Origin: Escherichia coli
GTDB taxonomy: Bacteria; Pseudomonadota; Gammaproteobacteria; Enterobacterales; Enterobacteriaceae
Length of the DNA stretch: 64,000 nt
Reading direction: 5' to 3' (one strand)
NCBI RefSeq assembly: GCF_003334255.1
Contig: NZ_QOWU01000008.1
Shown here: one piece after another, positions 15,457 through 64,000 of the stretch
How the letters are laid out: every line of letters begins with the position of its first letter
Numbering within the stretch: the first letter of the stretch is position 1
Translations under genes and position numbers: made by a program
Notes under the pieces: model-generated
The model's database searches: none
What the model saw: the letters and a program-made list of their open reading frames with translations, nothing else
What the model was told of the DNA's origin: nothing

Positions 15457-15921
15457 ATGGAAAAGAAATTACCCCGCATTAAAGCGCTGCTAACCCCCGG
15501 CGAAGTGGCGAAACGCAGCGGTGTGGCGGTATCGGCGCTGCATTTCTATGAAAGTAAAGGGTTGATTACCAGTATCCGTAACAGCGGCAATCAGCGGCGA
15601 TATAAACGTGATGTGTTGCGATATGTTGCAATTATCAAAATTGCTCAGCGTATTGGCATTCCGCTGGCGACCATTGGTGAAGCGTTTGGCGTGTTGCCCG
15701 AAGGGCATACGTTAAGTGCGAAAGAGTGGAAACAGCTTTCGTCCCAATGGCGAGAAGAGTTGGATCGGCGCATTCATACCTTAGTGGCGCTGCGTGACGA
15801 ACTGGACGGATGTATTGGTTGTGGCTGCCTTTCGCGCAGTGATTGCCCGTTGCGTAACCCGGGCGACCGCTTAGGAGAAGAAGGTACCGGCGCACGCTTG
15901 CTGGAAGATGAACAAAACTAA
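15457..15921 (+). CDS. soxR: MerR-family redox sensor SoxR with [2Fe-2S] cluster (154 aa)
   Basis: MerR-type HTH N-terminus and C-terminal [12 protein letters not shown] cysteine cluster. Confidence 0.95.
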
Positions 15922-16054
15922 AGCGCCACAAGGGCGCTTTAGTTTGTTTTCCGGTCTTTGTCTTTCTCTCTATCCCGCTGGTACACAGGAGGGTTTCCCC
16001 CGACGTCAACACACCTCATTCGAGCACGTGGTGGAGGTTCCGGTTGGTGTTGAT
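15915..16054 (-). ncRNA. ryjA: candidate small RNA RyjA/SraL, convergent with soxR
   Basis: Placed from recollection that K-12 carries this sRNA just 3' of soxR on the opposite strand, sharing the terminator hairpin; not verifiable from sequence alone. Confidence 0.35.
15921..15950. terminator. hairpin at the soxR 3' end (AAAGCGCCacaaGGGCGCTTT), likely bidirectional
   Basis: Inverted repeat overlapping the soxR stop, followed by a T-rich tract. Confidence 0.7.
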
Positions 16055-17868: not shown

Positions 17869-17966
17869 TCCGCACATTGTGTGAGCTTTTGCGATATTCT
17901 GAAAAAATGAGAATTCAGGCATAACGTCTTTCTCAGATCATAAAAAACATCGCAAACAGGGAACGC

Positions 17967-23278: not shown

Positions 23279-23372
<94 letters not shown>

Positions 23373-33814: not shown

Positions 33815-34310
33815 TGTGAATGCCTGATGCGACGCTTGCCGCGTCTTATCAGGCCTACGCCAGACAGCGCAATAGCCTGATTTAGCGTGATTTTGTAGGT
33901 CGGATAAGGCGTTTATGCCGCATCCGACATCAACGCCTGATGCGACGCTTAACGCGTCTTATCAGGCCTACGCCAGACAGCGCAATAGCCTGATTTAGCG
34001 TGATTTTGTAGGTCGGATAAGGCGTTTACGCCGCATCCGACATCAACGCCTGCTGCGACGCTTGCCGCGTCTTATCAGGCCTACGCCAGACAGCGCAATA
34101 GCCTGATTTAGCGTGATTTTGTAGGTCGGATAAGGCGTTTATGCCGCATCCGACATCAACGCCTGATGCGACGCTTAACGCGTCTTATCAGGCCTACGCC
34201 AGACAGCGCAATAGCCTGATTTAGCGTGATTTTGTAGGTCGGATAAGGCGTTTACGCCGCATCCGACATCAATGCCTGATGCGACGCTTGCCGCGTCTTA
34301 TCAGGCCTAT
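33815..34310. repeat. REP/BIME cluster: about 4.5 tandem units of 113 bp, each holding two REP palindromes
   Basis: CGTCTTATCAGGCCTAC recurs at 33842, 33955, 34068, 34181 and 34294 (period 113 bp). Confidence 0.9.
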
Positions 34311-35094: not shown

Positions 35095-37242
35095 TTACGC
35101 CAGTGCCGCTTCGCGCAGGCGAGTTTTCAACTTGTTGTACTCGTCAATCACGTACTGCTCGGCGGCGCGCTGATCGGCGATCGGCTCGACGCGAACGGCG
35201 CAGTATTTGTACTCCGGCGTTTTCGTAATCGGGCTTAAGTTTTCGGTAACCAGCTCGTTACAGGCACCAATCCACCACTGGTAGGTCATGTAAATCGCCC
35301 CTTTGTTCGGACGATCGCTGACCTGCGCACGGGTGATAATTTTGCCTTTACGCGAGTGCACCCAAACCAATGCCTCATCTTCAATACCCAGACGTTTGGC
35401 GTCTTCGGTATTGATTTGTGCGTAGCCAGGTTCATCAGCCAGCGCCGCCAGTGCCGCACAGTTACCGGTCATCGAACGGCAAGAGTAGTGACCAACTTCA
35501 CGCACCGTTGACAGTACCATCGGGTACTCGTCGGTGAGTTTGTCGATTGGCGCTACCCAGTCGCAGGTGAAGAACTGCGCCAGACCGTTCGGGGTATCAA
35601 ACTTCTCTTTAAACAGATAAGAAGTCCCCTGATCGGCATCTGAAGTATCGCGGCAAGGCCACTGAATGAAGCCCAGTTCGCCCATTTTCTCGTAAGTCGC
35701 ACCGTAGAAATCCGGGCACAGATGACGCAACTCATCCCAGATCTCCTGGGTGTTGTTGTAGTGCATCGGATAACCCATACGGGTGGCGATTTCACTGATG
35801 ATTTGCCAGTCCGTTTTCAGATCCCATTTCGGTTCAACCGCCTTGAAGAAACGCTGGAAGCCACGGTCAGCCGCAGTAAACACGCCTTCATGCTCGCCCC
35901 ACGACGTTGACGGTAAAATAACATCCGCCGCCGACGCGGTTTTGGTCATAAAGATGTCCTGAACGATAACCAGTTCCAGATCTTCAAAGGCTTTACGTAC
36001 TGCCGACAGCTCCGCGTCAGTTTGTAGCGGATCTTCGCCCATAATGTACGCGGCACGCACTTCGCCATGCGCTGCGCGGTGCGGCAGCTCGCTGATGCGA
36101 TAGCCGGTATGCGCTGGCAGGCTTTCCACGCCCCAGGCTTTGGCGAATTTCTCGCGGTTAGCCGGATCTTTCACGTACTGGTATCCCGGATACGTATCCG
36201 GCAGCGCGCCCATATCGCAGGCACCCTGAACGTTGTTCTGACCACGAACCGGGTTAACACCCGCATGCGGCTTACCGAGGTTACCGGTCAGCATCGCGAG
36301 GCTGGTCAGAGAACGCACGGTTTCCACGCCCTGGTAGAACTGGGTTACACCCATGCCCCACAGGATGGCGGCGCTTTTCGCCTGGGCATACATCCGTGCC
36401 GCCTGACGAATCTCACTGGCGCTGACGCCGGTGATATCTTCAACCGACTCCGGCGTGTAGCCTTCAACGATTTTACGATACTCTTCAAAGCCTTCTGTAC
36501 GTGAAGCGACGAACGCTTTGTCGTACAGATTTTCTTCAATAATGACATGGCCCATCGCATTCAACAGCGCGATGTTCGAGCCGTTTTTCAGTGCAATGTG
36601 CATGTCAGCAATGCGCGCGGTTTCAATTTTGCGCGGATCGCAGACGATAATTTTCGCCCCGTTACGTTTAGCGTTAATTACGTGATTCGCCACGATTGGG
36701 TGGGAATCCGCCGGGTTGTACCCGAAAACGAACACTAAATCGGTATTATCAATTTCGTTAATAGCATTGCTCATTGCGCCATTACCGACCGATTGGTGCA
36801 GACCTGCAACCGATGGGCCGTGTCAGACACGAGCGCAGCAGTCAACGTTATTGGTACCAATAACGGCGCGCGCAAATTTTTGCATTACATAGTTGGTTTC
36901 GTTACCCGTACCACGCGAGGAGCCGGTCGTCTGGATGGCATCCGGACCGTACTTCTCTTTGATGGCGCTCAGGCGCTCGGCAACGTAATTCAGTGCCTCA
37001 TCCCAGGAAACAGGTTCGAGTTTGCCGCCACGCTGGCGACGGATCATGGGGGTTTTCAGGCGCGGGGTCAGGATCTGGGTATCGTTAATGAAGTCCCAGC
37101 CATAATAACCCTTCAGACACAGGGTACCCTGGTTGGTTTTCCCCTGCGCTGCCTCCGCCCGGACGATTTTGCCGTTATCGACGACCAGGTTGATTTTGCA
37201 ACCTGATGCGCAATAGGGGCAAACCGTGACGACTTTTTTCAT
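35095..37242 (-). CDS. fdhF: formate dehydrogenase H, selenocysteine-containing molybdoenzyme (715 aa)
   Basis: Track ORFs 36823..37242 and 35095..36774 are one reading frame joined by TGA at 36823..36825; N-terminal Fe-S motif CPYCASGC; 2148 nt is 716 codons. Confidence 0.95.
36780..36822 (-). promoter_or_regulatory. SECIS recoding element directly 3' of the fdhF UGA codon (extent approximate)
   Basis: Bacterial SECIS lies immediately downstream of the Sec codon (established); the stretch after TGA is GC-rich and hairpin-prone. Confidence 0.65.
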
Positions 37243-37293: not shown

Positions 37294-37309
37294 TGCATCT
37301 TTTATGCCA
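37294..37309 (-). promoter_or_regulatory. sigma54 (-24/-12) promoter of fdhF: TGGCAT-N5-ATGCA
   Basis: Reverse complement of 37294..37309 is TGGCATAAAAGATGCA, about 50 bp upstream of the fdhF ATG; inverted TGACGAAA-type motifs at 37360..37410 are a candidate FhlA UAS. Confidence 0.7.
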
Positions 37310-37439
37310 CATTTTATGTGGGGTCATTCCCTGATATTACGGGCACTATTTATTCAAAACTCTGACGAAAAACAGGCTGTCGTCAGTTTTGACGTGACGA
37401 AACGAAATACCGCGTGACAGCCATCACGCGGCAGACATT

Positions 37440-60318: not shown

Positions 60319-61106
60319 TCAGATAAAGTGCTTACGCAACCGTTGAGAGAGGAAATCCAGCAGGCTGACCGTGACGATGATAAGCACCATCAGGGCGCAG
60401 GTTTGTTGGAACTGGAAACCGCGAATCGCTTCCCACAGGGTGACGCCGATCCCGCCTGCGCCGACCATGCCGACGACGGTCGCCGAGCGGACGTTGGATT
60501 CGAAGCGATAGAGGGAGTAGGAGATCAGCAGTGGCATCACCTGTGGCAGCACGCCGTAGAGGATCTCTTCGAGCTTGTTGGCACCGGTGGCGCGAATGCC
60601 TTCCACCGGGCCGGGTTCAATCGCTTCCACCGCTTCGGAAAGCAGCTTGGAGAGCACGCCGGTGGTGTGGATAAACAGCGCCAGCACGCCAGCACGCCAG
60701 CGAACGGGCCGAGGCCGACGGCGACCACGAACAGCATGGCGAAGACCATTTCGTTAATGGCGCGGCAGGCGTCCATCAGGCGGCGAACGGGCTGGTAAAC
60801 CCACCACGGCACCAGGTTTTCGGCGCTCATCAGGCCAAAGGGGATGGAGAGAACCACCGCCAGCGCGGTGCCCCAGACGGCGATTTGCAGCGTGACGGCC
60901 ATTTCGGTGAGGTAATCCTGCCACTGGCTGAAATCGGGCGGGAAGAAGTCGGCGGCGAACGTCGCCATGTTGCCGCCGTCTTTGATCAGCGTAAGCGGGG
61001 CCATTTCCGCGCCCTGCCACGAGACGACCAACACGGCGAGTACAACGGCCCAGCTCAGAAGCGAGAACCAGCTGCGCTTGGGTGGGGCGATGGTGATGGT
61101 TTGCAT
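60319..61106 (-). pseudogene. phnE: phosphonate ABC transporter permease PhnE, frameshifted by an extra 8-bp tandem repeat unit
   Basis: Two overlapping ORFs (60537..61169 and 60319..60687) in frames offset by 2; three 8-bp units at 60678..60701; removing one unit restores a single frame of about 260 codons. Confidence 0.8.
60678..60701 (-). repeat. 8-bp tandem repeat x3 inside phnE (minus strand GCTGGCGT GCTGGCGT GCTGGCGC)
   Basis: Plus strand GCGCCAGCACGCCAGCACGCCAGC; coincides with the phnE frame break. Confidence 0.9.
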
Positions 61107-61120
61107 GTTTGGCTCCGGTC

Positions 61121-61208
61121 TGTAGGCCGGATAAGGTGCTTGCACCGCATCCGGCATCAACGCCTGCACATTGTCGGATGCGACGCCGGGGCGTCTTATC
61201 CGACCTAC
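61121..61208. repeat. pair of REP elements between phnD and phnE
   Basis: GTAGGCCGGATAAGGTGCTTGCACCGCATCCGGC and GTCGGATGCGACGCCGGGGCGTCTTATCCGACCTAC. Confidence 0.8.

Positions 61209-63649: not shown

Positions 63650-64000
<351 letters not shown>

Follow-up and report, generated by a model that had tools for sequence, protein, structure and literature searches.

With near certainty, the fdhF gene of this Escherichia coli contig is intact, and its UGA codon 140 is recoded as selenocysteine (Sec) by way of a SelB-bound SECIS hairpin, being neither a termination signal nor a pseudogene lesion. The gene lies in a window of 64,000 nucleotides, the whole stretch of DNA that was analysed. Within the formate hydrogenlyase complex, formate dehydrogenase H is the subunit that oxidises formate. 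Its gene, fdhF, is the canonical case of selenocysteine recoding in bacteria, and the founding one, so that nothing new is learned biologically: Sec140 and its SECIS are confirmed, correct, ordinary and already known. The value here is one of annotation hygiene. ORF callers that take TGA as a stop split fdhF in two, at the risk of a false pseudogene call, and once UGA140 and its SECIS are recognised, the selenoenzyme of the complex is recovered intact, at 715 aa. This is also what an earlier, sequence-only reading of the window had proposed for the in-frame TGA at 36823..36825 (minus strand), and both a SECIS_2 match of 87.1 bits and the conservation of the codon bear it out.

The coding sequence occupies 35095..37242 on the minus strand and is supported as a single gene by its continuous frame, its identity to MG1655, PDB entry 1AA6 and the NCBIfam model TIGR01591. 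Translated in one frame, it consists of 716 codons whose stops are codon 140 (TGA) and codon 716 (TAA) only, and there is therefore no frame change within fdhF. The sequence-only reading had the codon count right, although it includes the stop and the protein itself measures 715 aa. In the ORF list, the gene appears as two ORFs in the same frame, one of 139 aa at 36823..37242 and one of 559 aa at 35095..36774 (both minus strand). Their shared frame was correctly recognised, but they are not separated only by the TGA as had been stated, since 16 open codons, HGPSVAGLHQSVGNGA, also sit between it and the listed 559-aa ORF. This gap arises because the ORF lister begins at the first ATG, that of Met157. 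The residues thus tally as 139 + 1 + 16 + 559 = 715 aa. Around the TGA, the minus strand reads TGC TGC GCT CGT GTC TGA CAC GGC CCA TCG GTT GCA GGT CTG CAC CAA TCG GTC GGT AAT GGC GCA ATG. The CCARV-U context first given for the break is accurate; the residues after it had been quoted with an extra C, the true reading being CCARV-U-HGPSVAGL.

The assignment of the gene to FdhF, made at first from the letters of the DNA, is secure. Over its 2148 nt it has 100% nucleotide identity to fdhF (b4079) of E. coli K-12 MG1655 and to that of many other strains. RefSeq describes MG1655 fdhF as one 2148-nt CDS spanning the TGA, and the newer RefSeq name is [quoted passage not shown] Protein searches against PDB and NCBIfam were run with an X at position 140. 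TIGR01591 was matched with 1089 bits against a cutoff of 666.25 (residues 6-685), and the formate dehydrogenase H structures 1AA6, 1FDI, 1FDO and 2IV2 were matched over 715/715 residues, with a non-standard residue at 140. In the alignment of 1AA6 (1-715) to FdhF (1-715), an X stands at 140 and an H at 141, in agreement with the position foreseen for Sec. The UGA at 36823..36825 (minus strand), which aligns with this X of the crystallised protein and is kept across species, is thus Sec140, the molybdenum ligand. The translation also carries an N-terminal CxxCxxxC...C motif, whose cysteines C8, C11, C15 and C42 we take, from the 1AA6 structure, to be the ligands of the 4Fe-4S cluster.

Could the TGA nevertheless be a true nonsense mutation, leaving fdhF as a pseudogene in remnants of 139 and about 575 aa? 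That is how a naive ORF call, which splits the gene, would present it, and broken genes do occur in the window: phnE, a genuine K-12 pseudogene, is annotated with a frameshift. There is, however, neither a frameshift nor a second stop across the 715 codons; the 575 downstream codons are fully conserved and match a protein that was crystallised at full length; and the SECIS model match falls exactly at the stop. Of 5421 E. coli records, 5412 have the TGA-bearing 55-nt element at 100% identity, and a homologous TGA codon occupies this position in at least 14 other species. Hardly any probability is therefore left to a nonsense pseudogene, which was rejected: constraint has not been lost, and the single stop is shared by relatives. 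As for the gene as a whole, fdhF was found in 5420/5426 complete E. coli genomes, and is at least 99% identical in only 4070.

The same records bear on an error of sequencing or assembly that would have made a TGA out of a TGC or TGT cysteine codon. Related Enterobacterales do have Cys-type homologues of FdhF, which gives the idea some footing, but the TGA context is identical in thousands of independent complete E. coli genomes, and the Cys-type is a distinct paralogue, with LQETLGN or LQATLGN downstream where the Sec protein has LHQSVGN. The probability of such an error is for practical purposes nil.

What follows the UGA is a SECIS element, as had been anticipated for the roughly 40 nt on its 3' side. 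The Rfam model SECIS_2 (RF01988) matches in full (55 nt, model positions 1-55/55) at 36776..36830 on the minus strand. Its 87.1 bits exceed the gathering score, which is 70, and the E-value is 1.7e-19 for a search of 601 nt and 1.8e-17 for one of the entire window. This is the sole SECIS match of a gathering-threshold Rfam scan of the full 64 kb; against SECIS_3, the fdhF element scores 35.8 bits, under the gathering score of 63. In published work, the UGA of E. coli fdhF is placed at position 140 and the SECIS behind it encodes residues 141-153 (PMC4513850); the SECIS is described as spanning 40 nt, with its 17-nt upper stem-loop located 11 nt downstream of the UGA and with U17, G23 and U24 critical (PMC8659212). 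With the U of UGA counted as nt 1, this classical element (nt 1-40, from U140 to about residue 153) corresponds to 36786..36825 (minus strand), as placed by the predicted hairpin and the literature (PMC8659212, PMC4513850). The minimal upper stem-loop GGUUGCAGGUCUGCACC, nt 15-31, which is the part published as binding SelB, is located at 36795..36811 (minus strand) by position check and predicted fold. In that fold, the bulged U17 lies at 36809 (equivalently, U18 at 36808), and the apical loop GGUC spans 36801..36804, all on the minus strand, as G22, G23 (36803), U24 (36802) and C25. The anatomy of the hairpin in the window thus agrees with the published numbering (PMC8659212, PMC4513850).

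RNAfold predicts that the sequence immediately 3' of the UGA forms a hairpin (42-46 nt folded, -14.2 to -14.9 kcal/mol), and the 17-nt upper stem-loop (nt 15-31, 11 nt past the UGA codon) is present in the predicted minimum free energy structure. The versions with U17 or with U18 bulged are isoenergetic, both at -14.2 kcal/mol. The fold suggested as a check by the sequence-only reading, a stem-loop with a bulged U (17/18) and an apical loop containing GU (here GGUC, with G23 and U24), was therefore recovered, and neither of the two outcomes named as refuting it, a UGA with no hairpin after it or a change of frame, was observed. Energy is a different matter. In four spans around the UGA, the fold does not differ significantly from dinucleotide shuffles (z -0.7 to -1.4); for the hairpin itself z is -0.9 to -1.4, and 17-44 of 200 shuffles fold as well. 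Since its energy is indistinguishable from that of shuffles, thermodynamics alone would not identify the element, and the support beyond chance is the covariance-model match to SECIS_2 together with the comparative data.

For the comparative data, a single genome of each species was scanned with TGH CAY GGN CCN NNN GTN GCN GG, a pattern built on the peptide motif and independent of the structure. The scan returned at least 120 stretches. Among the matches listed, at least 14 are FdhF-type with TGA, at least 17 FdhF-type with TGC or TGT, and at least 31 FdnG-type with TGA. In the two FdhF classes alike, HGPSVAGL follows the Sec or Cys codon, and a second FdhF-type paralogue with Cys (TGC/TGT) and no SECIS occurs in many Enterobacterales. 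This allows a reading to be weighed in which the hairpin is an accident of the conserved peptide HGPSVAGLHQSVG and the UGA is read through independently of any SECIS, by a near-cognate Trp or Cys tRNA. Two observations lean that way: the folding energy, no better than that of shuffles, and the pairing retained by Cys paralogues, which keep 60% of cells paired overall and 80% in the outer helix. Nevertheless, the Cys paralogues encode an identical HGPSVAGL with a variety of synonymous codons, do not keep the apical hairpin and give no SECIS_2 match, whereas the same wobble positions are frozen in Sec genes. Third-codon entropy over Val-Ala-Gly-Leu is 0-0.4 bits in Sec genes vs. 1.6-1.9 bits in Cys genes; among the matches listed, Sec FdhF genes have GTT in 13/14 and GCA GGT CTG in 14/14, and the core GCAGGUCUGC is unchanged in 15/15 of those aligned. 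With pairs counted on the literature structure (U17 bulged), the Sec alignment (n = 15) has standard pairs in 93.9% of cells, against 22-50% once the 3' partners are shifted out of register. In the Cys alignment, the overall 60% falls to 53% in the main helix, barely over slid registers. Six genomes hold both paralogues (Enterobacter spp. Bisph1, Ag1 and BIGb0383, Citrobacter werkmanii, Superficieibacter electus and Morganella psychrotolerans), and there SECIS_2 matches 6/6 Sec copies, exactly at the TGA, and 0/6 Cys copies. These contrasts show that nucleotide-level constraint on the hairpin is specific to UGA-bearing genes. Compensatory changes in Haemophilus also maintain the upper stem, and deletion of the SECIS abolishes readthrough of an fdhF fragment (PMC4513850). 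A hairpin that is a mere by-product of coding is thus extremely improbable; like the pseudogene and the sequencing error, it is excluded by conservation, by the contrast between paralogues and by the structural match, and recoding of UGA140 through the SECIS remains the explanation retained.

Covariation at the fdhF SECIS is sparse. The Sec alignment contains two double-sided changes, G15-C31 to U-A and U18-A29 to A-U, both in Haemophilus haemolyticus, and over this stretch the identity among most Sec sequences is about 95%. Since both compensatory pairs come from one species, a single lineage, and the other Sec sequences are so close, it is conservation, not covariation, that carries the argument. 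The change of U18-A29 to A-U does support U17 as the bulged base, judging from the alignment. The gene of H. haemolyticus is itself an informative case: its UGA and hairpin are kept by these two changes, yet its element is under the SECIS_2 gathering score, and the Rfam model therefore misses diverged members of the family. In Morganella psychrotolerans, C30 of the fdhF SECIS has changed to G (GGUUGCAGGUCUGCAGC), and the element still scores 79.1 bits with SECIS_2. For this sequence, RNAfold predicts a continuous upper stem of 6 bp (G16-C31, U17-G30, U18-A29 etc.) without a bulged U. For SelB binding, the bulged U is reported to be essential.

The SECIS_2 model also includes an outer helix of 5 bp, in which 36826..36830, located 5' of the UGA, pairs with 36776..36780 (minus strand) so as to bracket the UGA. 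It is 80% paired in Cys paralogues too, and may for this reason be incidental at fdhF, reflecting conserved codons. A function for it, such as keeping RF2 off the stop codon as long as SelB is not yet loaded, is improbable, because this degree of pairing is kept in paralogues that need no recoding.

How does the element compare with other recoding signals? E. coli K-12 fdhF (b4079), with Sec140 and its SECIS (RF01988), is the same locus, with no difference: the codon number, the 40-nt element and U17, G23 and U24 are all the same (PMC4513850, PMC8659212). In the FdnG/FdoG-type SECIS of respiratory formate dehydrogenase alpha subunits, to which SECIS_3 is the nearest model, the UGA is likewise followed immediately by CAC GGN CCN, a hairpin whose loop contains GGUC lies equally far from it, and the peptide RV-U-HGP(S/T)VAGL is shared with FdhF. 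Unlike that of fdhF, however, this hairpin has the stem GGUGGCAGGUCUUGCCCC and a 5-nt loop, and it is much more stable among the matches listed (mean -21.4 kcal/mol, z -2.1, vs. -14.0 kcal/mol, z -0.4, for the fdhF-type). FdnG-type genes (at least 31 loci) encode DNQARV-U-HGPTVAGL, and their SECIS hardly varies across Burkholderiales, Xanthomonadales and Halomonadaceae. The Cys-type FdhF of Enterobacterales, Clostridia and methanogens belongs to the same family as FdhF and shares the peptide C(C/N)AR(V/I)-x-HGPSVAGL; it differs by its TGC or TGT codon, its free synonymous variation, the lack of a conserved hairpin or SECIS_2 match, and the downstream peptide, which in Enterobacterales is LQETLGN, LQATLGN or LQVTLGN vs. 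LHQSVGN in Sec FdhF. Eukaryotic and archaeal SECIS elements (e.g. Rfam SECIS_1) also have UGA recoded as selenocysteine via a structure of the mRNA. They are found in the 3' UTR, as a kink-turn bound by SBP2. The fdhF SECIS, in contrast, sits inside the coding frame immediately 3' of the UGA, and of the models only the bacterial one was matched.

The process at the window's gene would then run as follows. The mRNA directly 3' of the UGA would fold into the SECIS hairpin, whose upper 17-nt stem-loop, with G23 and U24 in the GGUC loop and the bulged U17, would be bound by the C-terminal domain of SelB. SelB, carrying Sec-tRNA(Sec) and GTP, would tether this ternary complex at the fdhF mRNA, and the tRNA, with its UCA anticodon, would decode the UGA in the A site, competing there with RF2. 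Sec140 would then ligate the molybdenum of the bis-MGD cofactor. Much of this is established knowledge: the SelB-GTP-Sec-tRNA(Sec) complex delivers Sec at the fdhF UGA against RF2 with an efficiency of ~30-40% (PMC4513850, PMC8659212), and SelB binding and selenium-dependent readthrough have been published for this exact sequence (PMC4513850). For the gene of the window, SelB binding, Sec insertion and competition with RF2 are taken from the literature or inferred. Among the genes of the 64-kb window, none is selA, selB, selC (tRNA-Sec) or selD. All four are known from E. coli K-12, and in this genome they would lie elsewhere in the chromosome.

Upstream of fdhF, and not part of the recoding signal, a sigma-54-type -24/-12 element, TGGCATAAAAGATGCA, was found by pattern match, with 2 mismatches, at 37294..37309 (minus strand). 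A scan of the window with the sigma-54 consensus gave 32 matches vs. 43.6 expected by chance; as matches across the window are not above chance, the one upstream of fdhF is not significant from the pattern alone. Its assignment has another basis, the sigma-54 and FhlA dependence of fdhF expression, which we assume here. Farther upstream, at 37361-37400 (minus strand), TCGTCA/TGACGA motifs are repeated. They would fit the known FhlA upstream activating sequence.

The window as a whole is collinear by BLAST with the MG1655 record NZ_CP032667.1, at 99.97% identity. The 21 substitutions are scattered, the one 1-nt indel is at window position 17901 in the yjcE-ghxP intergenic region, and none of these differences is in fdhF. 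With 21 substitutions and one indel, the window is thus K-12-like, yet distinct from that record. The neighbours expected there, yjcO, mdtP-mdtO-mdtN, gltP and nrf, are present. The pseudogene phnE is located at approximately 60319-61106 (minus strand) and is annotated as frameshifted in the matching K-12 record. As there is no indel difference from this record at phnE, the copy in the window should carry the same frameshift and, on this alignment, should be a genuinely broken gene, in contrast to fdhF.

Other features of the window include arrays of REP/BIME-type repeats that match Rfam naRNA4 (RF02564), at 33898-34307 (plus strand), 63681-63957 (minus strand), 23292-23362 (plus strand) and 61125-61205 (plus strand). 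Four copies, ~113 bp apart, occupy the yjcO-gltP interval, a short way downstream of fdhF, and three copies 100 bp apart are found near the window end. Five of the 21 substitutions relative to MG1655 are within the naRNA4 array at 63.8-64.0 kb. The Hfq-binding small RNA sraL (RyjA) is also present, with a full-length Rfam match of 153 bits at 15914-16054 (minus strand).
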